From an uncultured Mycoplasmatota bacterium (GTDB taxonomy: Bacteria > Bacillota_I > Bacilli_A > RF39 > UBA660), in NCBI GenBank assembly GCA_900547775.1, contig URHW01000001.1:65762-129761 (forward strand): a stretch of DNA of 64,000 bases, given 5' to 3'. Shown here piece by piece: positions 43,246 to 59,473 of the stretch; the first letter of the stretch is position 1; the number at the start of each line of letters is the position of its first letter. The translations under genes and the position numbers were made by a program. Below the pieces are notes generated by a model. That model was not told where the DNA came from and searched no databases. It worked only from the letters and a program-made list of their open reading frames with translations.

Positions 43246-43297
43246 TTAAGTCACTCCTCATTTTTTATTATATCTTAATTTTAAATTATTTTCCAGA

Positions 43298-43984
43298 TTA
43301 TTTACCAGTATTTTTTGTCTTTATTGCAATATAGGTAGTAAAGCTTATTATAATGATACCAATGATAATAAATATTATGTTATAATTAAATTTTTCTTCT
43401 TCAGTTTCGCTATGTTTTTCGTTTTTGTTATAGTTAAGATATATTTCTTTTTTATTATAGTTATCTTTAGTTAAATTCCAAGTGTATATATTATTATTAA
43501 CGCCATCAGCATTATGTTTGGTTACTTTATTGTTTATAGTTATATTTATAGTTAGTTTATCTAAATCTGGATAGTTATCAAATATGTTTTCCTTTTTGCC
43601 TAGATTTAGGCTTATTATGTTGCCGGTCTCATTTAGTTTAAAGTTAGGAAAGTGTTCTTTGACTAGTGTTGATGTTAGATATTCTTCTTTAGTGAGATTG
43701 GCTTTATAACGAGCCCCTAATTCGTTATCTGTGTCTATTTTTGATATCTGATAATATTTTAAATTATTTTGCTTGAAATTAACTTCTGGCTTGTAGTAGT
43801 TATCATCTACTGGTATTTTTGATTTTAAGGCAACATTTACTGTTTTTTGAGATTTACTACTTTTATCGTTAGTTGTTAGGACAAGTTCTTCAGTGAATGT
43901 ATTATTATTTATGTCTAGATTATAGACGGCTTCACATCCAGTTAGTGATATCATTAGAATTAATAATATTAGTATTTTTTTCAT
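43298..43984 (-). CDS. Lipoprotein with C-terminal TM helix
   Basis: Start at MKKILILLILMISLTGC (lipobox LTGC) with GGAGGATAAT immediately upstream. C-terminal IIFIIIGIIIISFTTYIAI anchor. Confidence 0.5.
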   Translation of the reverse strand: MKKILILLILMISLTGCEAVYNLDINNNTFTEELVLTTNDKSSKSQKTVNVALKSKIPVDDNYYKPEVNFKQNNLKYYQISKIDTDNELGARYKANLTKEEYLTSTLVKEHFPNFKLNETGNIISLNLGKKENIFDNYPDLDKLTINITINNKVTKHNADGVNNNIYTWNLTKDNYNKKEIYLNYNKNEKHSETEEEKFNYNIIFIIIGIIIISFTTYIAIKTKNTGK

Positions 43985-43985
43985 A

Positions 43986-45788
43986 TTATCCTCCACAGTG
44001 ATTTGCGTAGTATGCACTCATTGAGACGCCAGTATAGTATGCTGATTGGTCATATCCATAGGTTCTATATTGAACTCCGCCTCCAGTGGATTCGGCAGTT
44101 TTAAGTTGTGAACCAGTATTTTCTAGTACTAGGATGACATGGCCAGAGTTTGCGATAACATCTCCTGGAGATAGTTTGCTGAATGGAATGTGATCTCCAA
44201 GTGATAGGAATCCAGCAGCGGTATATGTTCCAGTTATATTTGCGGCATGCATTGCCCATGAAACGAAACCAGAGCAATCTAGTCCCTTGTAGTAGTCATA
44301 ACTACCGTTAGGTTTTTGAATACTTGCACCAATATTTGCACCCCACTGTCTATCAACAATAGGATTTTTTGCTACATGTCCTCCGCCATAGTAATATGGT
44401 AGGTGAAAACCTTTAGCATGAAGGCCATCGATAAGAGCAATTGCGGCTCTAGCCACTGATGCTCCACTACATCCACTACCAACTGCTGAGCGTATTTTGT
44501 TTTCGAGTTCAATTACGCCTGCTTCACCTATTGCTTCAACAAGGCTAGTACCTTTTAGCTCAGTACTATCAGTATTAGGTGGATATCCATAATCTGATGA
44601 AGCACCTGGTATTGTGTTTTTACTTAGTATATAGTTTATAACAATTTCGTGGATTTTTTTGTAAGTTTCTACATTGTAATGAAGGCCATCTACTGTTTCG
44701 AAATTATCTTTTATTTGTGAGTAAACGTCGATAAAGTTTTCGCCAAAGCCATTTTTCATAACTGTATTAAAGCCTTCAATATTTGCATTAGTTACTGAGT
44801 ATCCATTTTCTGTTTCTTTTGCTTCATCAACGGGATTGACACTCATTACATAGACACTTACTTCAGAATATTTATTTTTTAATTCTTGATATTTTGCAAG
44901 GTAGTTTGAACTATTTGACAAATCATTAACGCCAAATGCAAGAACGATAAATTTTTTACCTTCTATTTTAGTTTCTAACTCTGGTATCGCACTATCTACA
45001 AACCATGAATATCCAGCACCGTTTTGGGCGATACTACTGATGCTTTTGTTAGTAATACTGCTCATCATACCTACTATACGAGAGTCACCCATGTATATAA
45101 GAAGGTTTTCGGCTTCTGCTGCTGTGTATACTGAAGCATTATAGTTTGTATCTGAGTTGTATCCGACATCTCCTCCTTTACTTGTTAAATCAAGCATTGC
45201 TCCTGAGTTTGGCCCCATTATAATTAATAATATCATTACAAAGAAAAAGAAAAGACAAGCAGAGGCTATACCGATAATTAAAAATTTGTTTTTGAGTTTC
45301 TTTTTGGGAAATAGTGAAGTTGTTCCACTTCCTTTTGCGTTGTTGGAACCATTGTTATTGTTTGTGGCTTTTTCAGCGGCTGATACTGCTTTTTGAGCTT
45401 GTTCTGTTTTATCTATTGAGGTGGCTGCTCCAACGGCATCACTTACACCACTTTCATTTATTCGATTTGAAGCTTCTTGGATTTTATTTCCTAGGGGAAT
45501 TCTTTTGTTAATGTCATTTAGTGCTTTACCTACAATTTGACTAGATTTTCCACCAGTAAGTTTGTCGGCGCCTTTAACGATTGCTCCAGCTGCTACGGCA
45601 TGGGGAATTTTAGTTTTCATTGCAACATTGGCAGCATTACGAAGATTATTAGCATTATTTTCAATGTTTCTGGCATCTTCATTCTGCTCTATTTGCTTAT
45701 TATCTTCTGGACTTGAATCATTTTGTGTTTGTGCATTATCTTCCGGCATTAAACCATTAGACTTTGCTTTGTAAGTTTCATCATCCAT
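43986..45788 (-). CDS. Membrane-anchored cell-wall hydrolase: SGNH/GDSL esterase domain plus NlpC/P60 endopeptidase domain
   Basis: Hydrophilic N-tail, TM FLIIGIASACLFFFFVMILLIIM, SGNH blocks (GDSRIVG, FGVNDL, DGLHYN), and C-terminal NlpC/P60 (YYKGLDCSGFVSWAMH...GHVILV). Confidence 0.6.
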   Translation of the reverse strand: MDDETYKAKSNGLMPEDNAQTQNDSSPEDNKQIEQNEDARNIENNANNLRNAANVAMKTKIPHAVAAGAIVKGADKLTGGKSSQIVGKALNDINKRIPLGNKIQEASNRINESGVSDAVGAATSIDKTEQAQKAVSAAEKATNNNNGSNNAKGSGTTSLFPKKKLKNKFLIIGIASACLFFFFVMILLIIMGPNSGAMLDLTSKGGDVGYNSDTNYNASVYTAAEAENLLIYMGDSRIVGMMSSITNKSISSIAQNGAGYSWFVDSAIPELETKIEGKKFIVLAFGVNDLSNSSNYLAKYQELKNKYSEVSVYVMSVNPVDEAKETENGYSVTNANIEGFNTVMKNGFGENFIDVYSQIKDNFETVDGLHYNVETYKKIHEIVINYILSKNTIPGASSDYGYPPNTDSTELKGTSLVEAIGEAGVIELENKIRSAVGSGCSGASVARAAIALIDGLHAKGFHLPYYYGGGHVAKNPIVDRQWGANIGASIQKPNGSYDYYKGLDCSGFVSWAMHAANITGTYTAAGFLSLGDHIPFSKLSPGDVIANSGHVILVLENTGSQLKTAESTGGGVQYRTYGYDQSAYYTGVSMSAYYANHCGG

Positions 45789-45809
45789 AAAGGCACCTTC
45801 CTTTCTTTT

Positions 45810-46298
45810 TTATTTTTCGATTGTGTAACTATCTAAGTATACGGTATAATTCATAATACTTTTTTCTTTAAATATGAATGTATTGTTATCGCCATCTATA
45901 ATATAAAATAGTTTATAATTTGTTTTATCTACTACTGTGTATGAAACAACTTTTGCACTTAAAAATTTAGTTGAGTAAATGTTTTTTAAGGCATTTTCAA
46001 AGTCAGTATATGTTTGAAGTTTTTGTGATTTGTAGTAATCATCTATCTTGGCGTATGCTGCTTCTTTGTCATTTATTGTTAAATTTACAAAATCTGCAAG
46101 GTATTTTTTTGCCATATCTTGTTCAGTTACGTATGTGTATGTTACTTCATTGACTTCGTAGTTGTGAAGATATTGATAGTTGTCTATAGTATTATCTTCT
46201 TGTTCTTTTTTATTATATATAACGGAGAAAATAATAGCTCCTATAACTATTATAACGCATATTATTATTGATATTTTATCTGAATCTAGTTTTCTCAT
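45810..46298 (-). CDS. Bitopic membrane protein, candidate VirB8-like (PrgL/TcpC-type) component
   Basis: N-terminal TM plus an extracytoplasmic domain of about 130 aa, placed after the hydrolase as PrgL is in pCF10. The fold cannot be verified from sequence. Confidence 0.3.
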   Translation of the reverse strand: MRKLDSDKISIIICVIIVIGAIIFSVIYNKKEQEDNTIDNYQYLHNYEVNEVTYTYVTEQDMAKKYLADFVNLTINDKEAAYAKIDDYYKSQKLQTYTDFENALKNIYSTKFLSAKVVSYTVVDKTNYKLFYIIDGDNNTFIFKEKSIMNYTVYLDSYTIEK

Positions 46299-46300
46299 AG

Positions 46301-46804
46301 TTATTCCTCCTTAAAGATCTTTCCATCGTATGGAGTTATATCAAATAATTTTTGAGAGTTATCAATTGTAACAATTAGGTAGTAATCTCCTGCTTTAGAA
46401 CTTCCATCAATTGAATCTTCATATAATACACCTTTTATGTAATATTTATTTACTTTTTTACTTAACTTTTCTTCATACATTTTAGTTGCACTAAATGTTA
46501 AATTTTTCCCAGAAAAGTTATCCAATTTTGTTAGAATATTTTCTTCAGTAATTTTATTTTTACTTGTGTATGATTCATTAAGTACTTTAATAAGGGCTTC
46601 TTTGTTTTCGCTCGTTAAGTAGTTAATGTATTTTGTAGCACATCCGTTTGCAGTAAAGAAATCGGAGTAGTTTTCTACTAAATTAATAGATGATGAATTA
46701 GGGTTATCGTTAGAAGAATCGTTTTTTAATACTTTATTTATAATTACAGCACCAAGAATTGTAACTACTCCTATTATAATTATTATATATGTTTTCTTAT
46801 CCAT
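46301..46804 (-). CDS. Bitopic membrane protein, second candidate VirB8-like component
   Basis: Same architecture as the previous ORF (N-terminal TM plus about 140-aa domain). Confidence 0.3.
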   Translation of the reverse strand: MDKKTYIIIIIGVVTILGAVIINKVLKNDSSNDNPNSSSINLVENYSDFFTANGCATKYINYLTSENKEALIKVLNESYTSKNKITEENILTKLDNFSGKNLTFSATKMYEEKLSKKVNKYYIKGVLYEDSIDGSSKAGDYYLIVTIDNSQKLFDITPYDGKIFKEE

Positions 46805-46818
46805 TAATAATCTCCTTA

Positions 46819-48900
46819 CTAATATCCATGAACGAATATTTTACATTCTTTTTGACGTCTATTTCTTAGTCCTTGCTCAAATTGAGTTCCAGGCATGACA
46901 GCTGTTTCATTCCACCAATTTGTACATAACGCGTCAGTTGATCCATACGATGCATAGGCTTCGAAGAAACCATTTATATTTCCATGATTATATTTTAGAG
47001 ATGTTAAGGCGTCTAATTGATTATCATTTAAAGTTAATCCATTACTTGCACATAGTGCTTTTACTGATTCTCTATCTTGGTTAAGCCGGTCAGCAAAGAT
47101 TTGATCAACAACTGATTTATTCATAGTTGTTCCACAGTAATTCATATAATTATTTGTAGTTGTTAGGTTAATACCATATCTTTGAAATAGAACTACATTA
47201 TTTGCTAGAGTGATACCATGACCTACTGTTGGAATATCACCAGAGTTACAGTAGACTGTATAAGTATCTCCTGATCCTACGCTTCCTTCTAACATTTCGA
47301 TAAGTTCTACTAAGTTTGATGACGCAGATGAGGCTGGTCTAGGATTTTTTTGATCTACATAGTTTAAGGGATCTACTCTTGTTGATATATCAGTTCTTAC
47401 TTCAAAATGTAAGTGTGTTCCTGTAGAACGACCTGATGAACCTACTTTAGCGATTACTTGTCCTTGACGTACTGAATCATTTACTTTTACATTAATTGTT
47501 CCTTCATGAAGGTGGGCATATAGTGTGTACATTCCATCAGAGTGACTTATCATAATGTAGTTTCCGTAACCTCCACCGCAATTTTTATCACCAAATGATA
47601 CGCAGTTATTGATTACTTTGGTTACAATACCATCTTTAGAAGCAATGACGTTTACTACGCCAGCACTTCCTCCTGGAGCAATGTCGATTCCTGTATGTCC
47701 GCTGTTTGCTGCTCCAGTTATCGGGTCTACTCTAAGTCCAAACATACTTGTTATTGTAGTTGGTACAGGTTCCCCTGTAGCATATGTTATTCCGCCTTCT
47801 TCAGTTGTTTCTGCTGATCCAATTGGCCACCAAAATGCATTTGGATTTCCTGCACTAGTGTAATTTACAATATTATCTTCTTGTCCATAATTATTTAGTA
47901 AGTCTTTAATCATTTCAACTATTTTTTTTCTAGCTTCGGTGATATCATCGATATTGGCTTCTTTTTCAGCCTCGGTAAGTTCAGTATTTCTTTTTTTACC
48001 TGTTTTTTCTAATATTTTGGTGTAGTAGTTGCTTAAGTGAGGCTTTTTATCAAAGTAGTTTCCTTTTATTAAAAACTCCCAATATTTACTTTCTGCTACT
48101 TCTTGAGCATTGTTAACTTTATAGTCGTAGCCTGAGTAACCACCGCTTGCGGCTTCATTTTTACATTCATCTTCAGCCTCAGATTTTATTCCAAAGAATG
48201 ATAATACACCACTATTTGCAAGAACTTTTTCCCAGAAACCAACGAAATCTTGTTTAATAAGGTCCTTGCATACACCATTTTCTAGAATAGCCATGCTACC
48301 TACGCATTCGGTAGTTGTTGTACCATCTTCATTTTGGATTGTTGTTGGCGCATATGTTCCATAACATTGTGAACGATATCCTAACATTGATTTTATTAAA
48401 AGTTTAATGCTATCAGATTCGTTTTCCCAATATGATGCATCATATTCTTTGTCAATATCATAATCAGTATCTGATTCATCTCCTGTATAAGGATTACTTG
48501 ATGATCCAGTTACTTCCTTATAATATTCTCCTGAATCGGCAAATAAGTCTGGATCTAGTTCAAAAAATGCAGTCATGATAATTATTTTATCATCAATAAA
48601 CAATCCTCTTGCTTGATATTTTGCGAGTAATTTATATAGCCTTGTGTAGAAAACTCTTTGACTTGCAATTATTCTTTCTTTACATTTATCTATTTCCGGT
48701 TGATTGTCATAGTCTTCACTACATAAAAATGTCCAATAGCCTAAATTTTCTTCTGCAAATTTGTCAAAATCAAAATCTGCATATTTGAAACTTGCTGCTT
48801 TCGTTATGTTTGGACTAAGGAAAAAAACTATTAAAAAGAAAGGTATTAGTAAAATACCTATTTTTAATAGTTTATTAGTTAAATGTTTAAAATTAAACAT
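46819..48900 (-). CDS. Secretion-associated peptidoglycan hydrolase: M23 peptidase plus GH24 phage-type lysozyme domains (VirB1/PrgK/CwlT analogue)
   Basis: Signal-anchor N-terminus. M23 motifs GHTGIDIA and GSSGRSTGTHLHFEV. GH24 motifs LEG..D..T, DALTSLKYNHGN and FEQGLRNRRQKECKIF. Confidence 0.75.
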   Translation of the reverse strand: MFNFKHLTNKLLKIGILLIPFFLIVFFLSPNITKAASFKYADFDFDKFAEENLGYWTFLCSEDYDNQPEIDKCKERIIASQRVFYTRLYKLLAKYQARGLFIDDKIIIMTAFFELDPDLFADSGEYYKEVTGSSSNPYTGDESDTDYDIDKEYDASYWENESDSIKLLIKSMLGYRSQCYGTYAPTTIQNEDGTTTTECVGSMAILENGVCKDLIKQDFVGFWEKVLANSGVLSFFGIKSEAEDECKNEAASGGYSGYDYKVNNAQEVAESKYWEFLIKGNYFDKKPHLSNYYTKILEKTGKKRNTELTEAEKEANIDDITEARKKIVEMIKDLLNNYGQEDNIVNYTSAGNPNAFWWPIGSAETTEEGGITYATGEPVPTTITSMFGLRVDPITGAANSGHTGIDIAPGGSAGVVNVIASKDGIVTKVINNCVSFGDKNCGGGYGNYIMISHSDGMYTLYAHLHEGTINVKVNDSVRQGQVIAKVGSSGRSTGTHLHFEVRTDISTRVDPLNYVDQKNPRPASSASSNLVELIEMLEGSVGSGDTYTVYCNSGDIPTVGHGITLANNVVLFQRYGINLTTTNNYMNYCGTTMNKSVVDQIFADRLNQDRESVKALCASNGLTLNDNQLDALTSLKYNHGNINGFFEAYASYGSTDALCTNWWNETAVMPGTQFEQGLRNRRQKECKIFVHGY

Positions 48901-48918
48901 ATTATCACCGCCTAATTA

Positions 48919-50709
48919 TTATAGTCCTCCACCTGAGCCAAATGAATCTAGTTCATCTTGAGTTAGAACTACATTTATTCTCATACGTCTGTTACCGCAG
49001 ACAAATAAAGCCTCACCTTGACTATATGTCTTAATGCTTTCTTTCTCATTGTCGTTTAAGTCAATTAATCTTGATAAGTCTTCAACTGCTTGTTTTTTTA
49101 ATCCCATTACTAAGTAATATGCGGCATTATCAAAGATTGCTTTACCATGAACAAAAATATTTTCAGCAGCAAAGTCTGTTGGTTGCTGTGTAATGATAAT
49201 TGTTCCAGTATTGTATTTACGACTACGTCTTTGAATTTGTGCAAGGAACTCGGCACCTAATTCATTTTTGCTTGATAATAGAACATGAGCTTCATCTACA
49301 AACATAACTGTATTTGTAGATTTATCTAAACATAATCCCCATGCATATTTTAGGATATTGAAGAACAAAGCATTTCGAATATTTTCATCACTATTCATTA
49401 GTTCTTTAATATTAAATACGATGAAATCACTCTTAGTTTCAATCGTAGTGTGACCGTTAAAATAGAACCTTAATTCTTTTACGAATGGTCTAATTCTTAG
49501 TTCTAGACGCTCCATGACATCTTTTTCTCTAGTTGCTTCTGGCATTGATAAAAGTTTACCTTTTATGGTTGCATAGACATCATCAAAGATTGGAAAGTCT
49601 TTAGATGTAAATTTACTAAAGTCTGTATTAAAGTCAATGCCAAATCTTTTATAAGTATCTTGAACTACTTCACTAAACATTGCTAGAACGTCTTCTTCAA
49701 TAGATGGATAGTAGTATTTCATGAAGGCTTTTAGTGATTGTAAGGTTCTTGTTAGAACTGTATATCCTAATCCTTCTTTAATCTCATCTTCATCAGCATC
49801 AAAGATTACTTCCAGTGGGTTTACCATACCAAATGCTCCACCACGGCCTAAGTCAATGAAGTCTCCACCAAAATTGTGAGTCATTTCACTTAATTCACCT
49901 TCTGGGTCGATTGCTACTATTTTACATCCGTTTCTGATGTGAGTTCTAAGCATTAATTTAGCAGCTGTAGATTTACCACTACCTGATGTACCCAAAATAA
50001 TCATGTTAGCATTATTTCGATTAAATTCTTTTTTTGTTTGATATAAAAATTGGTTAAATAAAACTACACCGCCAGAGAAATCAACACCTAATAATGTGCT
50101 TGATCCTGGATCTTTAATGCTATCAAATACGAATGGATACATTGCTGCTATTGTTGGACTTGGTATAGGGATACCTACTCTTTGCTCAACATCTTGTTTT
50201 GGGAATATTGGAATCATAGATTTTAAGACTTTTTCTTGTTCAAACATCATTGGGATTCCTCTCATACCCATCGCGTCAAGATAATTTCTAACTTGCATCT
50301 TTTTATTTTCTAATTCTTCTTTAGTATCAGCAGTTAACATGATATGCATTTGAAAGTCGAATATTTTTGATTGAGTTGCTGCTAGCATTTGGACAAATGA
50401 TTCTAAAGATTCATAGTCTTGACGAATTCTTTCTTGAAGAGTTCTTTCATTTTCATGTTGATAACGTTCTTTTAAGTCAGCAATTTCTTTATTAATCATA
50501 CGACTCATTGTTGAAAAGTCGATCGGAATATGTTTAATTACTACTTTTACTCCTGGTAAGTTAGTAACGTTTGCTAGAAACCCTGGCCCGATTATTTTAG
50601 GATAACTTATGATAGTTAATATTGTTGCATATTTATCGCTAATCATAAATTCATTTACGTCGAATTTCATACCTTTAGGAGCTATTTCACTTTTAAATGT
50701 ATTAGACAT
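48919..50709 (-). CDS. VirB4/PrgJ/TrsE-like ATPase, C-terminal 596-aa part
   Basis: Walker A ILGTSGSGKST, VAIDPEGELS, Walker B VMFVDEAHVL, and arginine-finger region QIQRRSRKYNTGTIIITQQ. Confidence 0.8.
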   Translation of the reverse strand: MSNTFKSEIAPKGMKFDVNEFMISDKYATILTIISYPKIIGPGFLANVTNLPGVKVVIKHIPIDFSTMSRMINKEIADLKERYQHENERTLQERIRQDYESLESFVQMLAATQSKIFDFQMHIMLTADTKEELENKKMQVRNYLDAMGMRGIPMMFEQEKVLKSMIPIFPKQDVEQRVGIPIPSPTIAAMYPFVFDSIKDPGSSTLLGVDFSGGVVLFNQFLYQTKKEFNRNNANMIILGTSGSGKSTAAKLMLRTHIRNGCKIVAIDPEGELSEMTHNFGGDFIDLGRGGAFGMVNPLEVIFDADEDEIKEGLGYTVLTRTLQSLKAFMKYYYPSIEEDVLAMFSEVVQDTYKRFGIDFNTDFSKFTSKDFPIFDDVYATIKGKLLSMPEATREKDVMERLELRIRPFVKELRFYFNGHTTIETKSDFIVFNIKELMNSDENIRNALFFNILKYAWGLCLDKSTNTVMFVDEAHVLLSSKNELGAEFLAQIQRRSRKYNTGTIIITQQPTDFAAENIFVHGKAIFDNAAYYLVMGLKKQAVEDLSRLIDLNDNEKESIKTYSQGEALFVCGNRRMRINVVLTQDELDSFGSGGGL

Positions 50710-51259
50710 TACTCATCACCGTCCCATACTCATTTTTTGCTCCCCCATTAAGGAAGTTCTGAAGCAAAAATTTTAAGTCTTCATCACTTGCTTGTCTTGA
50801 ATTTAGTCCACAACCGGCTAAGTTTGCAATCATGGTTTGAATTCTTTTTTGAACTACTTCTAATTTTTTATCTCTGAACAAGAAGAAATATTCTGTATCA
50901 ACTGCATTAACACTGCTGCCGCCAAACATCTCGGCTTTTTGAATATCCTGATTAATTAATTTTCTTACGGCTTGATTTTGCGCATTGTCATATTGAAGTT
51001 GTAGTTGTGATAAGTATAGTTTTATATCTACTGGTCTATCTGCAACTACTAGCCAAAATTCGTAGTCAAGTGTGTTATAAAAGTTCCTTAAGTTAAAGAT
51101 AATATTATTTTGTGTTTGATAATCTAATATGAAAATATTTTTGGGTTCAACTTTAATTCCTGTTACATAATAATTATTATTTAAGATAATCATTCCGTTT
51201 TGAATTGCTTTAACAGGTACCCAATCTTCAGAAAATTTACTTGTCTTCTGTTTTGCCAT
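50702..51259 (-). CDS. VirB4 N-terminal domain as a separate 185-aa ORF
   Basis: FYNTLDYEFWLVVADRPVD and upstream IILNNNYYVTGIKVEP match the CagE/TrbE/VirB4 N-terminal region. 8-nt overlap (ATGTCTAA) with the ATPase ORF. MSN occurs at both ends of the junction. Confidence 0.55.
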   Translation of the reverse strand: MAKQKTSKFSEDWVPVKAIQNGMIILNNNYYVTGIKVEPKNIFILDYQTQNNIIFNLRNFYNTLDYEFWLVVADRPVDIKLYLSQLQLQYDNAQNQAVRKLINQDIQKAEMFGGSSVNAVDTEYFFLFRDKKLEVVQKRIQTMIANLAGCGLNSRQASDEDLKFLLQNFLNGGAKNEYGTVMSNV

Positions 51260-51560
51260 AGCTATTACACCAACCTTTCCAATAATAAACTCGATTATTT
51301 GTATAATATGTGAATACGTTTTTGATAAACGTTCTAACGTTATGCTGATTTGGCAGAGGAACTATTAAGAACGTGCATACAAGAGCTGGAGTTAATATTA
51401 AGAATGCCGTTTTCATATCATTAGTTTGAATTGATAGCATAAGTACAAAACTTACTACTACTCCAGTTATGAAGATTATCAAATCCGTTGTATTGAATAG
51501 GCCCAATATCAGCATAGATTTTTTTGAGTTTGCTGGTATCAAGTAATTATTGTTTCCCAC
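51237..51560 (-). CDS. PrgI/VirB3-like small membrane protein
   Basis: 107 aa, two TM helices (MLILGLFNTTDLIIFITGVVVSFVL; AFLILTPALVCTFLIV), C-terminal NVFTYYTNNRVYYWKG. Sits directly upstream of VirB4. Confidence 0.5.
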   Translation of the reverse strand: MGNNNYLIPANSKKSMLILGLFNTTDLIIFITGVVVSFVLMLSIQTNDMKTAFLILTPALVCTFLIVPLPNQHNVRTFIKNVFTYYTNNRVYYWKGWCNSYGKTEDK

Positions 51561-51574
51561 TTTTTATTCCTCCT

Positions 51575-52006
51575 TTATTTAATTCCAAATGAACCTAGAA
51601 GTGCTTTGCATCTATCAAGTGCTTTTCCTGAAAATAGATAATTTACAAAGTACTCAGTATTTGTATATCTGTCATCCTGATGTACTATTAGTCCTGCTTT
51701 TTTAGAAAATGAAGAATTAGTTCTAAGTGTTTTGTTAAGTTCTTTAACACATGCTCTGTATAAACTGGGATTTTCTTTCATAACTCTGTCTAAAAGACCT
51801 ACCATCTGTGTATAATAATATGTATCAATTTCTTTTAATGTTTTAAATCTTCTAAAGTTTCCAGAGTAAAATTCTTCCTTTTCATTTTCCCAAGCACTTT
51901 TTATTATGCTTTCTTCTCCTGATTGCGTGCTTAGTAATAATTCATATTGGGTACGATATTCTGTACATAATTTGCTTATAATTTTTGCATCAATTTTGTC
52001 TATCAT
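51575..52006 (-). CDS. Cytoplasmic hypothetical protein within the secretion operon
   Basis: 143 aa, no TM. Start ATG shares one nt with the upstream stop (TAATG). Confidence 0.35.
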   Translation of the reverse strand: MIDKIDAKIISKLCTEYRTQYELLLSTQSGEESIIKSAWENEKEEFYSGNFRRFKTLKEIDTYYYTQMVGLLDRVMKENPSLYRACVKELNKTLRTNSSFSKKAGLIVHQDDRYTNTEYFVNYLFSGKALDRCKALLGSFGIK

Positions 52007-54147
52007 TATTTACCATCCTTCTTTGCTTGTTCTGATGCTAAACTAGATTGACTCTTCGCAATTGAGTTATTAAGTGCCGTTTCTAAATCCTCATATTGTT
52101 TTGCAAATTGTGCATAATTAATGTTTTCGGACTTAGCTTGAGTTACTAAGTCATTTACCATGCCAGAAAGTTTATCTCTTTGTTCTGGGTCATCTATTGT
52201 AAATGCAACCTGTTCAAATTGTTTTGAAAGTGTTTGTGCATAATTGATGCATCCATCTTGTCCAAGTTTTTCTAAACTCTTTGCTTGTTCTGCTGATAAT
52301 AAATCTTTGTAAACGGCCTTAATTGTTTTTTCTCTATCGTTTGCTGTACCAAAATTGTATGTCTTGTCACCTACTGTAATTGAGTTTCCACTTTGTACTA
52401 CACGTTTTCCAGAGACACTTGCTAGTCTGCTTGCTAATTCAGCACTAGTTAGTTTACCTTGATATGAATCAGTAATAAGGTCATCTCTACCTTTTTTGAT
52501 GTTATTATATGAGCCTTTATTAGCAACGTTTTTCAAGAATGAACCAACTGTATTTTTTAGTTTTGTTTGATTATCTACAGAACGTTGTAATACTGAATTG
52601 CTTCCATCAGTAAGGTAGTCTGCAAATGTTGAAGCTGCATCCGCGATATTATCTGTCATACGGTCAAATACTGTAGAGTATTCTTTTGCTTTTTCTGCAA
52701 CTGCTTTTTTAATTTGCTCTTCACTCCACTCTGGATGTAATGTACGTAAAGTGTTTGTGTATTCTTCACCATGTTCCTCAATCCACTTATTTTCAAGTTG
52801 TCTATTATGTGCTTCTCTATCATCTCTATGCTCATCAGCGGTTGAACGCGCTCCGACAATTGTATCTTTTACTTTGGTAATATCATTAAGGCCTCTACTT
52901 TGAACCCATCCTTGACGACCGCCACCGATAAGTCCTCCAAAACCAGTTTTAATAACTTGACCAACGCTTTTTCCAGCACCAATTCCTTTTATTACATTTC
53001 CAACTGCTGTTGTTCCTGCAGCACCTAACACAGATGCACCACGTAATGCGTATTCATTTTCATTAAGTTTTTTCTTGATGGACATTTGAGGTATTTTAAC
53101 GCTGAAGATTTCTTCGAGAAGTTTCGGAGCATCTTTAGCAAATTTTAAGATTCCTAGAATTACTACTACTGTAGCAATAACATTAATAAAAAGTCCTCCA
53201 CCACTTGCAAAGATATTTATATCTGACACAAACGATATTAATAACATCGCAAAGTTTATTATGACTATTCTTTCAAAAACCTGGAGATATGTTTTAGTAA
53301 ATTCACTGAACCATTTGTCAAACTGACCACCTTTTGGCTTCGTTATCCTTAAAAATATTGGAATTGGAGCGATTAACTTTAAAGCGCCTAGTTTTGCTGC
53401 TCTAACGCCCAAATCAAGTGAAAATGATAAGAATAAATATGCTGCAACTACTCCGGCAATCGTGCTTAATGGAAATAAATATTCCATATCATCATCATAT
53501 ATTCCATCTTTTAGGTCTTCATCATGCATGAAGTTCCAAAGACCACCTATACCATTTTTAGCATTATCGGCCATTTCTTTGTATCTTGAACATAACTTGA
53601 CGGATGAGCTCTCACATTCGGTTAGCGTAACCGGCTCTTTGTTTTCATCTATCGGATGGTAAAATGCCGTAAAGATTGTTACCGAAACATTTAGAGCACC
53701 TTTCGTTTGTCCATTTTCACCAGAATCACTTGCGGTTGAACCCATGATAAGATTACCAATTGTGTTGTTTTCTATTATATGATTTTGAAATATTTGCATG
53801 TATTCACATATTAATGGAAATAAGGTAACTAAAACAATTGAAATTATTGTATTTTGAACAATATTTTTTACTGATTTTTCTCCTTTGCTCAATGAGTCAG
53901 GGTCAACGATTGCCAAGATTATATTATATGCAAAAACGAATAGCATGACTATTCCGATTATTGTATAAATCCTTCTGGATATTACACCAACATTTTCTGT
54001 TGAAAATACTTCTACTTTACTTACTACTTCAAATAGTTGATAACATATATTAATTGCTAAATAGATTACATAGTCAATTGTAAGAAGAATTCCATAAAAG
54101 GCATTTGATACCCAATTTCCAATTATACTTCCTGTGAGTGTTCCCAT
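52006..54147 (-). CDS. VirB6-like polytopic membrane protein (TrbL/PrgH/TcpH/ConG-type) with long hydrophilic C-terminal extension
   Basis: Start at MGTLTGS with AGGAGG 7 nt upstream. About 7 TM helices in the first 400 aa, a Gly-rich segment, then a roughly 300-aa charged C-terminal domain. Confidence 0.5.
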   Translation of the reverse strand: MGTLTGSIIGNWVSNAFYGILLTIDYVIYLAINICYQLFEVVSKVEVFSTENVGVISRRIYTIIGIVMLFVFAYNIILAIVDPDSLSKGEKSVKNIVQNTIISIVLVTLFPLICEYMQIFQNHIIENNTIGNLIMGSTASDSGENGQTKGALNVSVTIFTAFYHPIDENKEPVTLTECESSSVKLCSRYKEMADNAKNGIGGLWNFMHDEDLKDGIYDDDMEYLFPLSTIAGVVAAYLFLSFSLDLGVRAAKLGALKLIAPIPIFLRITKPKGGQFDKWFSEFTKTYLQVFERIVIINFAMLLISFVSDINIFASGGGLFINVIATVVVILGILKFAKDAPKLLEEIFSVKIPQMSIKKKLNENEYALRGASVLGAAGTTAVGNVIKGIGAGKSVGQVIKTGFGGLIGGGRQGWVQSRGLNDITKVKDTIVGARSTADEHRDDREAHNRQLENKWIEEHGEEYTNTLRTLHPEWSEEQIKKAVAEKAKEYSTVFDRMTDNIADAASTFADYLTDGSNSVLQRSVDNQTKLKNTVGSFLKNVANKGSYNNIKKGRDDLITDSYQGKLTSAELASRLASVSGKRVVQSGNSITVGDKTYNFGTANDREKTIKAVYKDLLSAEQAKSLEKLGQDGCINYAQTLSKQFEQVAFTIDDPEQRDKLSGMVNDLVTQAKSENINYAQFAKQYEDLETALNNSIAKSQSSLASEQAKKDGK

Positions 54148-54158
54148 TGTTTTTCCTC

Positions 54159-54506
54159 CTACTCTATGCAAGTTGTGTATGAATCATTGATGAAGCTTAA
54201 TAAAAGATTTAATATTATTGGCAAGAAAAATAATACTACTATTAAAATTAGCCTTGTAATAAGTTTTTTATTAACTTTTTTATATTCTTCTGGGTCTTTG
54301 TTCACTAAAGCAACTATATAGTCATAAGTTGAATAAGCAATTACCAGTATTGGTCCTAAAATTTTCATATATTTGAAAATATTTGATAAATCTTCCATTG
54401 TTGATTCACCTAATAGTCCTGAACATGTTTCTTCTGATAATGCATAAACATTATTATTTATAGTTAAAATTAAACCTAGTATTATAAGCCAAGCCTTTTT
54501 TTTCAT
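54159..54506 (-). CDS. VirB2/TrbC-like small membrane protein, paralog 3
   Basis: Start at MKKKAWLIILGLILTINNNVYA (signal peptide). Two hydrophobic segments (ILGPILVIAYSTY; LILIVVLFFLPIILNLL). C-terminal Cys. Paralogous to 55593..55919 and 57862..58263. Confidence 0.45.
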   Translation of the reverse strand: MKKKAWLIILGLILTINNNVYALSEETCSGLLGESTMEDLSNIFKYMKILGPILVIAYSTYDYIVALVNKDPEEYKKVNKKLITRLILIVVLFFLPIILNLLLSFINDSYTTCIE

Positions 54507-54574
54507 ATTAATCAAACCTCTATATATACAACATAATTTTAATATAAAATCAATCATATTGCAAGGAAAATGCT

Positions 54575-55483
54575 TTAATTATTTTTATATGCATTTTCAT
54601 TTTGATTTTTGGGTTCGTAAATATCAGTTATTCGAATAAATAATGCTTGGCGTCCCATTGAGTCATAGCTTTTATTGAATTTTTTTCTTGGAACTTTGAT
54701 TTCTTTTTCGTCTTTTAATGGGTCATTTATATAATAATTATTTTTATCCATACCAATTACTACAACAACATGTGCATTTTTTGGATATGTATAGGTTTTA
54801 GATTTATCGTAACTAAACCATTCATAAACTTCTTTGGCTTCGGTGTAATCGGTTGTTGTCCACACTAGGACAGGATCCCCACTTTGAACATATTCTTCTA
54901 GTGGCCTTTTGTCATTTGAGGTAAAAACGTGACCGGCAGTATCTTCGGGAAGCATTTCTTTAAATATAGAATATATAGAATTTTTTATAACTGGTAAGAA
55001 TGTTCCCCAGCCTCTTTTAGGATCGCTTGGGTCTCCAGCATAATATTCGCTAGGGTCTGGCCCGTAACGAACACCATTTTTTTCATAAACATCTTCTTTT
55101 GGAAGAAATGTATCAACATATGTTGCCATATCAATATCGATGCCAGCATAATTAAGTAACATTGTAGCACTAGCCACTTCACATCCATTTGGATAATCTG
55201 GATTTTGCTTTACTAGTGGAAAGTTTTTAGTAATGAAACTATATTGTAGGTTACTATAGTATTTATCTAATAAGTCTTCATACTCATATATACTATAATT
55301 ATTTCCTCCTTTTGAGAGTATTAGTTGGTTTGTAAAATAGTCATCTTTTAATGATGGAATTATTGCATGCTTTAATTTTTCTTTTTCACTAGTAAAAAGT
55401 TTATACCATATAAAATTGCTAGATATGATTGTTATTATTAATAAAATTATTATAAGTTTGTATTCTTTTTTCATATATATCAC
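54575..55483 (-). CDS. Membrane-anchored C39-like cysteine peptidase (Peptidase_C39_2/BtrH-like)
   Basis: N-terminal TM. NPDYPNGCEVASATMLLNYAG (catalytic Cys) and HVVVVIGMDKNNYYINDP (catalytic His). Confidence 0.6.
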   Translation of the reverse strand: MIYMKKEYKLIIILLIITIISSNFIWYKLFTSEKEKLKHAIIPSLKDDYFTNQLILSKGGNNYSIYEYEDLLDKYYSNLQYSFITKNFPLVKQNPDYPNGCEVASATMLLNYAGIDIDMATYVDTFLPKEDVYEKNGVRYGPDPSEYYAGDPSDPKRGWGTFLPVIKNSIYSIFKEMLPEDTAGHVFTSNDKRPLEEYVQSGDPVLVWTTTDYTEAKEVYEWFSYDKSKTYTYPKNAHVVVVIGMDKNNYYINDPLKDEKEIKVPRKKFNKSYDSMGRQALFIRITDIYEPKNQNENAYKNN

Positions 55484-55566
55484 GATTTAATTATAACAGA
55501 TTGTAATAGTAAAAGTATTTTTATAGTAAATATTTTACATTTTATTAGTTATTTTTACAAAGAAAA

Positions 55567-55590
55567 AAATCTCAGTAATCTGAGATTTTC
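55567..55590 (-). terminator. Strong rho-independent terminator inside the secretion locus
   Basis: Perfect 9-bp stem aaatctcag/ctgagattt with a 4-nt loop. A 7-nt T-run follows on the minus strand (A-run 55562-55569 on plus). Sits between paralog 2 and the C39 peptidase gene. Confidence 0.6.
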
Positions 55591-55592
55591 GA

Positions 55593-55919
55593 TTAGTCAC
55601 AATTCCAAGGACTTAAAATGCAGTCTTGACATTTTTTGAAGTTATCAACTGGCATATCTTTGTATCCATTGATAGTTCCAAATAGCCACATTACTACTGT
55701 TGGTACGAAGAAAATTAGCACGCCAGCAATTGCACGATACATTAAACGCTTACTAGCAACTTTAATATCATCATCTTTACTTCCAACTACTGCTTTTCCT
55801 AAATCGAACATACCATATCCAATAATTAATAATGGAATAGCTATTTTAAATACTGTTAGGATCCAACCAATAAATCCTAATACGTCTGACGCTTGATCAC
55901 AAAATCCGGTAACGTTCAT
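55593..55919 (-). CDS. VirB2/TrbC-like small membrane protein, paralog 2
   Basis: 108 aa. Hydrophobic segments KIAIPLLIIGYGMF and AIAGVLIFFVPTVVMWLF. C-terminal CQDCILSPWNC. No cleavable signal peptide. Confidence 0.45.
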   Translation of the reverse strand: MNVTGFCDQASDVLGFIGWILTVFKIAIPLLIIGYGMFDLGKAVVGSKDDDIKVASKRLMYRAIAGVLIFFVPTVVMWLFGTINGYKDMPVDNFKKCQDCILSPWNCD

Positions 55920-55978: not shown

Positions 55979-57064
55979 TTATTTGAAAAGGCCGAAAAAA
56001 CTTGTACTTCCTTGTTTTCCAAACCCTAGTTTTAGTAATAATTTGTCAACTACTAATAGTCTGTCTGCTCGGTCGTTAATTACCGGCATATTATAATAAA
56101 CTTTAAATTTTGTTTCATATTCAAAGTTTGATAATTCTTCATCCTTAATTGCACTTTGATTTAATATTATTTTTCCATCTGCAATTTTTTCTTTAATGTT
56201 AATGTCTTTTTTTAGTGCTTTATTTAAACTTATTATGCCTGGATTTACTAAGTATAAAATATCCTGGCACAGATTTCTTTCTGATAAACCATTTAGGTCT
56301 ATAAGAATTATTTCTGTATCTTTTAAAGTGTTTATTTTATATTTTAAATCTTCTACTGATGTACAAAATGAAATGTCACTATCTTTTAAATATATTGAAT
56401 CTTGTTTAAACATTTCAAATGCTTTAACTTTATAGTTTATTCTTAGTTGTTTTAGTATCATGTACATAAGGGTAGTTGCACCAGCATGCTCAGTTACATT
56501 TTGAATACCTATAATTCTTGCACCTGTTTTAATAGATTCTTCGGCTCTTACATATCCTGGGTTGTAGTCATCATTTATATAAGAATTACTTGTATAAGGA
56601 TTACTTTGGAATGTTTGATTTCCAAATGTGTTTGGTCCCATTCTATTTAATTCTATACTTTGATTTTGTGCTTGACTTAAACTATTAATATATTTAGTAA
56701 CATCATTTAATGTGTTTGGGTGTGTTAATAAATAGTTTATGCCAGCAGCGTTTCTCGTAAAATTGTAATAGCCGTTTTGTACTAAAAGTGTTAGATAACT
56801 ACTGCTATTTACTAGTTCACTATTATTTAATAGAAGAACTGTTTTATTTGGCCCAAAGAAACTTAAAAATCTTAATACTTCTTTTATATCAAAGAAGTTT
56901 TTGATAGCGGTTATATCTATTACGGCTTTGCTATATAATAGATTTCCAAGTTCGGCTTCAATAGTTTCTCTAGTAAACTCTCCAGTTATGGTTTTAATTG
57001 AGTTAATGTCAACACTATCAATAACTTTACTATTTTGATTTTTAATTATTATGTTTATATTCAT
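55979..57064 (-). CDS. CpaE/TadZ-like ParA/MinD-family protein with degenerate Walker A
   Basis: N-terminal receiver-like region of about 150 aa. ARIIGIQNVTEHAGATTLMYMIL aligns to the CpaE P-loop G-x-K-G-G-x-G-x-T-T but lacks the Lys and second Gly. Confidence 0.45.
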   Translation of the reverse strand: MNINIIIKNQNSKVIDSVDINSIKTITGEFTRETIEAELGNLLYSKAVIDITAIKNFFDIKEVLRFLSFFGPNKTVLLLNNSELVNSSSYLTLLVQNGYYNFTRNAAGINYLLTHPNTLNDVTKYINSLSQAQNQSIELNRMGPNTFGNQTFQSNPYTSNSYINDDYNPGYVRAEESIKTGARIIGIQNVTEHAGATTLMYMILKQLRINYKVKAFEMFKQDSIYLKDSDISFCTSVEDLKYKINTLKDTEIILIDLNGLSERNLCQDILYLVNPGIISLNKALKKDINIKEKIADGKIILNQSAIKDEELSNFEYETKFKVYYNMPVINDRADRLLVVDKLLLKLGFGKQGSTSFFGLFK

Positions 57065-57075
57065 AGAATCACCAA

Positions 57076-57540
57076 TTAGAAGACGTCATTTTTAGGGAAA
57101 TATATTGGCTTTGTTTCACCTGTTACAGGGAATGTAAATATTTCACCCATTATTGGTAAGTCAACTCTAAAAAAGACAGTTACCTTGTAGTAAGTCTTTT
57201 TTATATTTCCATTAGTATCTTCTGTTTTAGCAATGCAATATTTGAATTTTCTTGAGTTTGTATTACTTGCTTCAAAACCGTGTGCACCTTCACTAGATTG
57301 TGATGATACATAATCAGGGCAACTACTATATACAAGGTAACCAACATTATTTAAATAGTCTGAAATTTCAGCAACTGTTGAGTCACTTACTCCTTCTTTT
57401 TTTTCAATAATATTTATAATACCATTTTTTACTTTGAAGGCTTTTGAGTAGTTTACAGATATAGCTAAAAAACTTGTAAAAAGTACTATAAAGACAATAA
57501 CGATAGAAAAAATCCAGGTTCCACCTATCGCTTCTCTCAT
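57076..57540 (-). CDS. N-terminally anchored extracytoplasmic protein (possible minor pilin/TadE-like)
   Basis: MREAIGGTWIFSIVIVFIVLFTSFLAISV anchor plus a beta-rich domain with two Cys. Confidence 0.35.
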   Translation of the reverse strand: MREAIGGTWIFSIVIVFIVLFTSFLAISVNYSKAFKVKNGIINIIEKKEGVSDSTVAEISDYLNNVGYLVYSSCPDYVSSQSSEGAHGFEASNTNSRKFKYCIAKTEDTNGNIKKTYYKVTVFFRVDLPIMGEIFTFPVTGETKPIYFPKNDVF

Positions 57541-57550
57541 AATTTACCTA

Positions 57551-57799
57551 TTAATTACCTGCTGCTTCGCTATTAGGACATTTAACGTCTACTGTAGTTT
57601 CACATGCTTCGTCTTCACAATAATAACAATCACATATTTCAGTAGTACAGTTTGGACAAGTGGCTGCTGAGCAATGAAGTTTAGATAAAATGTTTGATTT
57701 CATTGATGGCCAGATAAGTGTAGTAAACACTACTCCTATTGCAGCGATAGCAACTACTGCTACTGCAGTCATACTTAATTCACCTGAAGCTTCTTTCAT
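57551..57799 (-). CDS. Flp-like mini-pilin with Cys-rich C-terminus
   Basis: 82 aa: MKEASGELSMTAVAVVAIAAIGVVFTTLI (Gly plus a long Ala/Val/Ile helix, like class III or Flp prepilins but without EY), then 9 Cys in the last 40 residues. GGAGGAATAAATA RBS. Confidence 0.4.
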   Translation of the reverse strand: MKEASGELSMTAVAVVAIAAIGVVFTTLIWPSMKSNILSKLHCSAATCPNCTTEICDCYYCEDEACETTVDVKCPNSEAAGN

Positions 57800-57835
57800 T
57801 ATTTATTCCTCCTTATCTTAAATTAATTATATAAT

Positions 57836-57861
57836 AAAAAGAATTGTAAATCAATTCTTTT
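57836..57861 (-). terminator. Rho-independent terminator after paralog 1
   Basis: aaaagaattg-taaat-caattctttt hairpin directly after the stop, then a T-run on the minus strand. Confidence 0.5.
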
Positions 57862-58263
57862 TTAGCAATTGTTTGGATGGAATAGACACTCTGTACATGT
57901 TTCATATTCGCCTTGATAATTTGTCCAATCATTAACTGTTGATAGTGCTACGTCAATGATTGTTGGGAGTAACATAATGATTACTCCAGTTAAAATTCTT
58001 TTTCCTAATGTTTGAGCACTTTTCTTAAGTTCATCCTCTTTTCCGGCTTTTACGCTATTGTAGAAGATGAATATGCCTTGGCCAATTATTATCAATGGAA
58101 CAAATAGTTTTACAAACATAATTATATATCCAACAAACTTCATTACATTTTGGATTTCTTCTCTTGCACACATGTTTTCACCTACTGCTTCAGCATGTAC
58201 AGTAAGTGGTAATATTAATAGAACTAATAATAAATATTTGTAGTATTTTTTATTCGTAGTCAT
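57862..58263 (-). CDS. VirB2/TrbC-like small membrane protein, paralog 1
   Basis: Signal peptide YLLLVLLILPLTVHA. Segments KLFVPLIIIGQGIF and ILTGVIIMLLPTIIDVAL. C-terminal CTECLFHPNNC. Confidence 0.45.
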   Translation of the reverse strand: MTTNKKYYKYLLLVLLILPLTVHAEAVGENMCAREEIQNVMKFVGYIIMFVKLFVPLIIIGQGIFIFYNSVKAGKEDELKKSAQTLGKRILTGVIIMLLPTIIDVALSTVNDWTNYQGEYETCTECLFHPNNC

Positions 58264-59386
58264 AACCGTCGTCCTCTTTCTGCTCTGGCATTTTTGTTAC
58301 TAATTTATAGATTACATAGCCACATATTCCAAGTAATATTAAGATTAGAAGTACTAAACCAAAGTTGCTTGATTTTTTGATAGTTATTGTATAGTCTTTA
58401 GTGTCGCCGTTTTCAGCGGTTACAGTTACTACTACTTTACTTTTATTTTTTAAGTTAGAATTGTTTTTTATTTCATATGTTGATGAATCGCTTTCGGTTT
58501 CAACAATCATGTCTAACTTTTTATCACTTCTACTTATTTTTAATTTATATTCAGTTACATCTGTTTTAAATTCTAAGTTGTATCCTTGAATCTCAATTTT
58601 TGAAAGGTTTGTGTTACTATCTAATTCATCTTCATATGAAAGAATTATTCTGTATACACGGCTTGTATCATCTTCTGCTGTTACAGTTACTAATATTGGT
58701 TTATCAATATCAATATTTTCATTGTTTTCAATTTTAACTGTGGCTTTATCACTTTCTGGTTTAGCAGTAACTTCAATACTTGTTATATCTTTAGAGATTT
58801 TTAGATTGTATGTTTCAACTTCTCTACTAAAAATAAAGTCAGTATCTTTTAAATCTAGTTCTCTTAAATAATTGTTACTATCTTTTAAAGTAGTTGTTGT
58901 AGTCGTGGTAGTTGTTTGTGAGGTAGTTGTATTTGGTTTAGTATTGTTTGGACGATTTGGTTTTTTTGTTGTAGTCGTTGTTGTGGTAGTAGTTGTTTTC
59001 TTAGTAGTTGTTTGATAAGTTAGACCATTACTTGTTCTAGAGCAATCATATGATGCTAGTATTGCACAATATTTTGGATAAGCATCACTTCTACAAGCAC
59101 CACTATAAGCAGTACAAGAACTTTTAGCAACAAAATATAATGGGTCTTGATTACCATTTGAGCATTTTACTAGACCTTCTGTATAAAATTGTGTTTGCCA
59201 AGTTCCACTATAGCATGTTGCTTTGATGCAGTGACCGAAATATCCTTGATTAAAGTTTGCTTGCCCGTAACTTGCTTGAAAGTCTAGACATGTTTGATAG
59301 TCTTTTACATAACCGATATCTAGGGCAGCATTAACTTTTAATGGAACTAAAATTGATAACATAGCCATTATTATATACTTTTTCAT
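58250..59386 (-). CDS. Surface protein: Cys-rich N-domain, Thr-rich linker, two cadherin-like repeats, C-terminal TM anchor
   Basis: Signal peptide. Six or more Cys in the first 110 aa. Linker TTTKKTTTTTTTTTTKKPNRPNN. Repeats ending TYEIKNN..KVVVTVTAENGDTKDYTITIKK. C-terminal TM. Confidence 0.55.
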   Translation of the reverse strand: MKKYIIMAMLSILVPLKVNAALDIGYVKDYQTCLDFQASYGQANFNQGYFGHCIKATCYSGTWQTQFYTEGLVKCSNGNQDPLYFVAKSSCTAYSGACRSDAYPKYCAILASYDCSRTSNGLTYQTTTKKTTTTTTTTTTKKPNRPNNTKPNTTTSQTTTTTTTTTLKDSNNYLRELDLKDTDFIFSREVETYNLKISKDITSIEVTAKPESDKATVKIENNENIDIDKPILVTVTAEDDTSRVYRIILSYEDELDSNTNLSKIEIQGYNLEFKTDVTEYKLKISRSDKKLDMIVETESDSSTYEIKNNSNLKNKSKVVVTVTAENGDTKDYTITIKKSSNFGLVLLILILLGICGYVIYKLVTKMPEQKEDDGYDYE

Positions 59387-59394
59387 ATTACCTC

Positions 59395-59435
59395 CAAAAA
59401 AAGATACCGACTTGTTTAACCAAATTCAGGTATCT
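59395..59435 (-). terminator. Hairpin plus T-run between adhesin genes 2 and 3
   Basis: agatacc...ggtatct stem with a 20-nt loop. Its minus-strand T-run abuts the RBS GGAGGTAAT of the next gene. Confidence 0.35.
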
Positions 59436-59473
59436 TCAAATCTATATTAATAATATCATAAAATTATTAATAT

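Follow-up and report, generated by a model that had tools for sequence, protein, structure and literature searches.

Introduction

Tad/Flp pili (type IVc), known from the tad genes of A. actinomycetemcomitans and Bifidobacterium breve and the cpa genes of Caulobacter, involve a small pilin, pseudopilins with short leaders that end in Gly, and a TadZ/CpaE-type protein; within these systems TadZ has been regarded as a weakly active or inactive hub (PMC6668835). Here we describe three adjacent genes, for proteins of 82, 154 and 361 aa and referred to below as the trio, that share this set of features and that in relatives belong, again as in Tad/Flp systems, to an operon that also encodes a CpaF-like ATPase and a CpaB/RcpC-like protein. 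The trio lies beside genes for a type IV secretion system (T4SS) in a 64-kb stretch of DNA (the window; contig URHW01000001.1) from an uncultured Mycoplasmatota bacterium, which has about 30% G+C and carries nearly all of its genes on the minus strand. We followed up a sequence-only reading that had proposed a Tad-like module at this site. Our explanation, to which we give a probability of roughly 0.6, is that uncultured gut Bacilli have a Tad-like (type IVc-like) filament system, divergent and lineage-specific, whose fibre-side and scaffold components are encoded by the trio and whose motor is supplied in trans.

Several other described systems bear on this comparison. Thin type IV pili beside a conjugation-type T4SS are known from the R64 pil operon and from PAPI-1-type integrative and conjugative elements (ICEs), where they serve cell-cell contact. 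Those pilus modules have their own ATPase, platform and peptidase, are of type IVb, and belong to mobile elements of Gram-negative bacteria. A ParA-like protein, VirC1, accompanies the Agrobacterium VirB/D4 T4SS; it has an active Walker ATPase, no receiver-like domain and no linkage to pilin-like genes. A system with DUF5411, CpaF and PilC-like proteins has been predicted, by computation only, in Roseburia, Ruminococcus and Eubacterium (Miller et al. 2022, PMC9523054); that paper contains no pilin, minor-pilin or TadZ-like families and no link to a T4SS. In the literature that we searched there was no description of the three families reported here, nor of any Tad-like module with a fixed place next to a Gram-positive T4SS.

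Results

The trio is a conserved operon under purifying selection

The trio is read from the minus strand in the order 82-aa mini-pilin gene (57551-57799), 154-aa minor-pilin-like gene (57076-57540) and 361-aa gene (55979-57064), and all three open reading frames (ORFs) were found in the ORF list where the sequence-only reading had placed them. Gaps of 10 and 11 nt separate the genes and a strong ribosome-binding site (RBS), AAGGAGG, stands ahead of the 82-aa gene; the trio is thus laid out as a single tight operon. The homologous clusters number 666 for the 361-aa family (all unannotated), 288 for the 154-aa family and 603 for the 82-aa family, and when one genome was scanned for each GTDB species, at least 541 were found to encode the 361-aa protein. 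The listed loci come from metagenome-assembled genomes or uncultured isolates out of gut samples (human, rabbit, goat, chicken) and are labelled mostly as Bacilli, Tenericutes, Mycoplasma sp. CAG:776 or Erysipelotrichaceae, with some Muribaculaceae, Clostridium and Phocaeicola.

Gene order was compared in 85 fetched loci and the window, with the denominator given for each feature. We distinguish clade A (at least 40% identity), a subclade of 65% identity (A65), and clade B (35-38% identity). The mini-pilin and 154-aa genes lie directly upstream of the TadZ-like gene in 74 of 75 loci. In 35 clade-A loci, at 40-100% identity, the trio ORFs are intact, and comparison with a 90%-identical relative (locus L006) gave ratios of nonsynonymous to synonymous substitution rates (dN/dS) of 0.095 for the 361-aa, 0.06 for the 154-aa and 0.20 for the 82-aa gene. 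The three genes are under purifying selection and are not relics. That they might be functionless leftovers of a system that has lost its motor would fit the observation that no motor module (described below) is present at the locus in any of the 22 clade-A genomes whose flanks are long enough. We regard this as very improbable, given the intact frames, the low dN/dS, the invariant motifs in the encoded proteins and the retention of the strong RBS and of a promoter-like site.

The 361-aa protein is predicted to have a TadZ/CpaE architecture

An AlphaFold2 model of the 361-aa protein, built on 41 homologues (mean predicted local distance difference test score, 85), contains two alpha/beta domains, one receiver-like (residues 1-135) and one of the ParA/MinD fold (181-350), joined by a disordered linker (136-175). 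A Foldseek search with the C-domain returned the SIMIBI P-loop proteins HypB, MinD, FlhG, FleN, ParF and NifH. The model and this search bear out the two domains that had been read from the sequence alone. An atypical receiver-like N-domain followed by a ParA/MinD-type P-loop C-domain is the TadZ/CpaE architecture, and in the model the 361-aa protein has it; the closest known counterparts are TadZ of Eubacterium rectale (PDB 3FKQ) and the N-domain of CpaE2 (PDB 4MYR).

The sequence GIQNVTEHAGATTL occupies residues 186-199, which in the model coincide with the strand-loop-helix of a Walker A site (strand 183-189, helix from 196). The P-loop reads T-E-H-A-G-A-T-T, so that the classical Lys is absent, as had been proposed, and so are the K/R and the two glycines that mark the TadZ consensus, K/RGGxGxS/T (bioRxiv 10.64898/2026.07.08.737194). 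The departure from this Walker-A-like motif holds throughout the 361-aa family. The P-loop residues that the family does have are invariant or nearly so in both clades, and the pocket is therefore constrained. From these residues it is reasonable to infer that the protein has lost ATP hydrolysis; a loss of ligand binding is not implied. Most family members end in a short hydrophobic tail (FFGLFK or LFSIFK; the window protein in FFGLFK) that resembles the membrane-targeting helix of MinD and FlhG and probably attaches the protein to the membrane.

The contig CACZRB010000064.1 (L029/L034) carries another TadZ-like paralogue about 19 kb downstream of the first; it shares 43% identity with the 361-aa protein of the window and has no adjoining pilin genes.

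The 82-aa and 154-aa proteins resemble pilins

The 82-aa protein begins MKEASGELSMT, continues with about 22 hydrophobic residues and an invariant WP, and ends in 40 hypervariable residues that carry 8 Cys, one fewer than the sequence-only reading had counted. In an alignment of 93 distinct family sequences from the fetched loci, the consensus start MKEA[ST]GEL[NS]MT is followed by the hydrophobic stretch, F25 and W30-P31; no variation occurs at M1, E3, G6, L8, F25 or P31. The stretch from residue 8 to residue 31 is hydrophobic and strongly conserved, like the N-terminal helix of a small prepilin. The number of Cys per protein is 4, 6 or 8, always even, and none falls within the first 33 residues (n = 93). 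Because the count is even and every Cys lies outside the membrane segment, the tip of the mini-pilin is likely to hold extracellular disulfides. As judged from the alignment, the packing helix is conserved and the exposed tip variable, which is the pattern of a pilin.

The 154-aa protein starts with MREAIGG, followed by a transmembrane (TM) helix, and its model suggests a pilin "lollipop". The mini-pilin, the 154-aa family and DUF5411, a protein of the motor module, have a common start: M-[KR]-E-[AS]-x(1-2)-G and then a TM segment. Canonical Tad leaders of the same lineage are similarly short (MGKRG/QALVEY and MKKG/QALVEF), and the 82-aa protein may be cleaved after Gly6. We did not call the 154-aa family a paralogue of DUF5411: hhalign aligned the first 20 residues only, at 22% probability.

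The size, the Cys content and the variable C-terminus of the 82-aa product would also suit a secreted peptide, either a bacteriocin or a signal, matured by a C39 peptidase, with the other two genes acting in immunity or export, and a Peptidase_C39_2 gene does lie nearby (54575-55483). This gene occurs in the window and two loci only among 86 sequences searched, and there is no ABC exporter. The N-terminus of the peptide is a 22-residue TM helix, not an amphipathic double-glycine leader, and its motif is common to two larger pilin-like families. We give this explanation next to no weight.

A CpaF-like motor module joins the trio in relatives

Clade-B operons place a motor module directly ahead of the trio, which forms their 3' end. 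The module consists of DUF5411 (E 1.9e-57), a 276-aa CpaB-like protein (RcpC/CpaB match at 1.8e-4, sub-threshold), a 370-aa T2SSE ATPase (1.7e-29) and two polytopic membrane proteins of 297 and 262 aa. Among solved structures the ATPase is nearest to Caulobacter CpaF (E 1.6e-18), ahead of FlaI and VirB11. The module, scored by its T2SSE ATPase, lies within 10 kb upstream of the trio in 19 of 33 clade-B loci (clade A, 0/22; A65, 0/3), and DUF5411 is present in all 3 A65 loci. When the search was started from the ATPase side, the trio was found downstream in 36 of 42 metagenome loci with sufficient flank. Because in relatives the trio is a member of one operon with a CpaF-like ATPase module, we assign it to a divergent Tad-like system.

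The same loci bear on the possibility that the trio is a T4SS accessory unrelated to Tad, in which the 361-aa protein would be a VirC1-like factor of the ParA family that positions or recruits for the secretion channel, and the two small proteins ordinary membrane components of the Gram-positive T4SS. The strict adjacency of trio and T4SS in clade A, where VirB4 follows within 10 kb downstream in 21 of 21 loci, is what such a proposal would predict. However, VirB4 is found there in only 5 of 25 clade-B loci, leaving 20 trios without a T4SS, and in neither of 2 A65 loci. The distal position of the trio in operons with a CpaF-like ATPase and a CpaB-like protein (the 19/33 and 36/42 loci above), the receiver-like plus ParA-like architecture, which is that of TadZ/CpaE, and the pilin-like model of the 154-aa protein likewise make a plain T4SS accessory improbable. 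The sequence-only reading had offered two roles, positioning the T4SS or nucleating a short pilus-like fibre. Since the trio is not T4SS-specific, the first has become less likely and membership of a fibre is the likelier of the two.

In the A65 loci (L001/L002, L008 and L009), DUF5411, the trio and a 108-aa VirB2-like gene stand together with no T4SS or ATPase nearby; in L001/L002 a polysaccharide deacetylase and a SpaA-type sortase pilus cluster come after the trio unit. A large adhesin-like gene stands at the head of clade-B operons.

Where a motor might be encoded

The sequence-only reading had noted no CpaF/TadA ATPase, TadB/C platform or prepilin peptidase, and our searches agree with it: no scanned window ORF of at least 100 aa matched Pfam T2SSE, T2SSF or the A24 peptidase, and tblastn with the divergent and the canonical Tad proteins of relatives gave no match in the window. 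It had also allowed for an ordinary tad operon just outside. A contig whose 154-aa protein is 99% identical to that of the window shows a dnaB-like gene, dnaI and a C1 peptidase gene just past the window end, and no such operon there.

A motor encoded elsewhere in the genome is the conservative explanation and, in our view, the most likely one, though unproven. Three observations favour it. Firstly, 6 of the 42 motor clusters (L135, L139, L141, L143, L144 and L164) stand alone, with no trio within 10 kb; they consist of genes for a CpaF-like ATPase, a CpaB-like protein and a pair of membrane proteins, and the DUF5411 of one of them is 78% identical to the copy that adjoins an A65 trio, versus 52-59% to clade-B copies. 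Secondly, in many clade-B loci, such as L059, L046 and L049, the 10 kb around the trio contain no motor and no T4SS, so that physical linkage of the trio to either is dispensable. Finally, the window itself contains a canonical type IV prepilin, which suggests that a prepilin peptidase is encoded elsewhere in the genome. This prepilin is part of a 333-aa ORF (31640-32641, minus strand) that begins with a QueH epoxyqueuosine reductase domain (aa 20-193); with no stop codon in between, the same frame continues into MKQKG/FTLVELISV (N_methyl, PF07963, E 3e-7) from an internal start at 32059 that has its own strong RBS, AAGGAGG, 6 nt upstream. The ORF is either a fusion or an in-frame overlap.

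We dropped the idea of placing a stand-alone motor cluster and a trio on one contig, since their regions show no overlap and give no ground for equating the contigs. The DUF5411 domain of L139 makes up the N-terminus of a 391-aa protein, and the motor cluster of L164 has a VirB2-like gene directly after it. Five clade-B loci (L040, L048, L050, L053 and L058) have a fully canonical Gram-positive Tad operon 3-6 kb downstream of the trio, past obg, with Flp (MGKRG/QALVEY), TadE (PF07811), TadG, CpaE with KGGVGKT, a 482-aa CpaF, TadB and TadC; two different sets of Tad-type genes can therefore coexist in these organisms.

A motor of the PilB/TadA type might also be dispensed with altogether, if the pilin, the minor pilin and the TadZ-like hub had been captured by the T4SS and the fibre were built or used by VirB4, VirB6 and VirD4. 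In clade A the motor is missing within 10 kb while VirB4 always follows, VirB2-like genes lie on both flanks of the trio, and purifying selection persists without a local motor, all of which a chimeric machine would explain. On the other hand, it would not account for the clade-B trios that have no T4SS and no motor within 10 kb, nor for the stand-alone motor clusters of related organisms. We know of no T4SS that polymerizes type IV-like pilins, which also counts against it, and we consider such a machine doubtful.

Points that weigh against a Tad-like assignment

The assignment to a Tad-like system with a motor in trans has to be weighed against a series of negative results. None of the three proteins has a Pfam or NCBIfam match, which sets the trio apart from known Tad/Flp systems, and the profile checks (AAA_31/CpaE and Flp_Fap) that had been suggested with the sequence-only reading were all negative. 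For the 361-aa protein there was no Pfam (AAA_31/CbiA/ParA) or NCBIfam match at E up to 1, and PDB sequences searched with phmmer and with a 41-sequence profile left the family unmatched (profile E up to 10). Compared by hhalign with a canonical CpaE of the same lineage, the family reached 7% probability over an alignment of just 61 columns, covering the stretch from Walker B to NRS; the canonical CpaE of L040 matches AAA_31 at 1e-17. Its P-loop is more degenerate than that of TadZ, lacking even the K/R, and its gene is the last of the operon, whereas in Tad/Flp operons the TadZ gene is first.

The 82-aa protein lacks the Flp motif G/xxxxEY, which had been among the points to check. After Gly6 comes ELSMTA, which has neither Glu at +5 nor Tyr at +6, and the canonical Flp of L040 reads G/QALVEY. 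It did not match Flp_Fap (PF04964) at E up to 1; among the 120 homologues listed of the 603 found, all of them unannotated, none has a Pfam domain. The 154-aa protein and its L003 homologues gave no match to the TadE-like profiles (PF07811/PF13400), to which the canonical TadE of L040 matches at 3e-12. As to the motor, comparison of the 297-aa and 262-aa proteins with canonical TadB and TadC by hhalign was not significant, and these putative platform proteins of the relatives are not recognizably T2SSF-like, unlike those of Tad/Flp systems. Motor, platform and peptidase genes, which Tad loci contain, were not found in the 64 kb analysed here or within 10 kb in the 22 related genomes.

Genomic context of the trio

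The upstream boundary of the operon (57826-57862, minus strand) combines a hairpin and a promoter-like site. The hairpin (57862-57836) has an AT-rich stem of 11 bp (dG -9 kcal/mol, z -5.2) and ends the preceding 133-aa gene; the terminator scan requires GC pairs and misses it. The promoter-like sequence TTGATT-17-TATAAT (57854-57826) overlaps it. Downstream, an intrinsic-terminator-like hairpin (55565-55590, minus strand; found by the terminator scan, dG -11.8 kcal/mol) comes after a further gene (55593-55919, minus strand), which encodes a 108-aa VirB2-like T4SS pilin paralogue. Thus the two hairpins that the sequence-only reading had described do exist, but the unit that they bound has four genes and not three. 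The 108-aa protein matches Pfam T4SS_pilin at E 3.4e-4, under the gathering score, and its gene has a strong promoter-like site of its own, TTGACA-17-TAAAAT (55974-55946). Its place downstream of the trio is conserved, with a VirB2-like gene after the TadZ-like gene in 28 of 33 clade-A, 2 of 2 A65 and 15 of 39 clade-B loci.

The 133-aa gene directly upstream (57862-58263, minus strand) was met by tblastn with the 129-aa and 160-aa pilin-like proteins of L003 (E 8e-12 and 2e-13) and is likewise a VirB2-like pilin paralogue, so that T4SS-pilin-like genes flank the trio on both sides. A third VirB2-like gene (132 aa; 54159-54557) begins the surrounding T4SS block (40909-54557, minus strand; assigned by Pfam and NCBIfam), whose genes are context and not members of the trio. 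The block encodes a VirB6-like protein (52006-54171), a TcpE/VirB3-like protein (51237-51560), a split VirB4 (50702-51259 and 48919-50709), the VirD4 coupling protein (40909-43245), an M23/lysozyme hydrolase and an NlpC/P60 protein, all on the minus strand. An AAA_10/TraG P-loop, a T4SS-DNA_transf match at 5e-54, a weak Mbov_0396-like TM protein and the M23 plus lysozyme domains mark it as a Gram-positive (MPF_FA/FATA-like) T4SS.

The two parts of VirB4, a 185-aa TraC-like N-terminal protein and a 596-aa ATPase, are encoded by genes that overlap by 8 nt. Since the same split is present in every related locus examined (L003, L004, L005, L086 and L168), it is a family trait and not a frameshift. 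Of the three VirB2-like paralogues (108, 133 and 132 aa), the 108-aa and 133-aa proteins end in Cys-containing tails, e.g. CQDCILSPWNCD. Between the 108-aa protein and its orthologue in L006 identity is 100%; the dS of 0.015, against about 0.5-0.9 for neighbouring genes, suggests recent recombination or unusually strong constraint. The C39-like gene mentioned above (minus strand; Peptidase_C39_2, E 1e-19) stands between VirB2-like genes, and its product has an N-terminal TM segment. Three surface proteins are encoded upstream of the trio (58250-63635, minus strand). Two are cadherin-like beta-sandwich proteins, one of 1181 aa and one of 378 aa that has a C-terminal TM segment and a poly-Thr linker; the third, of 202 aa, has a C-terminus that is LPXTG-like.

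In the lineage of the window the trio occupies a fixed site, in the order dnaB-dnaI, adhesins, trio, T4SS, without a motor module in the locus. The upstream flank (dnaB-like, dnaI, cadherin-like adhesins) is conserved across species at 48% to 99% identity, and past the T4SS follow murD-like, ksgA, murG, ftsQ and ftsY (locus 40027-63635, compared with L086, L004, L167 and L168). The T4SS resembles that of Mycoplasma ICEs in its weak NCBIfam matches to the Mbov_0395, Mbov_0396 and Mbov_0397 families (pilin-like, VirB6-like TM and VirB4). It differs from it in its housekeeping-gene flanks, in its synteny across species, in the additional trio and in that no relaxase or integrase was seen in the window. 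By these features the locus appears to be chromosomal and vertically inherited, not an obvious mobile element.

Discussion

We propose the following model for the Tad-like system. The 82-aa protein would be the major subunit of a short fibre; its hydrophobic alpha-1 helix would serve in extraction from the membrane and in packing, and its small, hypervariable, disulfide-locked knob would be exposed. The 154-aa protein would act as a minor pilin, in priming or at the tip, and the 361-aa protein as a non-catalytic hub of the TadZ/CpaE type that organizes the assembly site at the membrane. A CpaF-like motor and a prepilin peptidase, both encoded elsewhere, would build a short adhesive fibre from these parts. 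By analogy with the thin type IV pili of some conjugative elements, such a fibre may provide cell contact for the adjoining T4SS.

The predicted system of Miller et al. (PMC9523054) is similar in that clade-B loci also combine DUF5411, a CpaF-type ATPase, a large adhesin-like protein and unrecognizable genes, in Gram-positive gut bacteria. It differs in its hosts, which are Clostridia there and reduced-genome Bacilli here, and DUF5411 is absent from the window.

The motor-less, T4SS-linked arrangement of the trio is unusual. One question that it raises is whether the T4SSs of Gram-positive bacteria enlist type IV-like fibres to make contact with cells; another is whether the pilin side can be driven by a motor that is encoded elsewhere, or by one of a different kind. 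If a VirB4/VirD4 machine did build or use a Tad-like fibre, it would be a true hybrid of two superfamilies of secretion systems and filaments. The hypervariable, disulfide-locked tip suggests an exposed structure under diversifying pressure, as in adhesion or in interaction with a host or with phages. With the explanation proposed here, three large unannotated protein families gain a reading as the core of what may be an undescribed Tad-like surface fibre of reduced-genome gut Bacilli of humans and animals.

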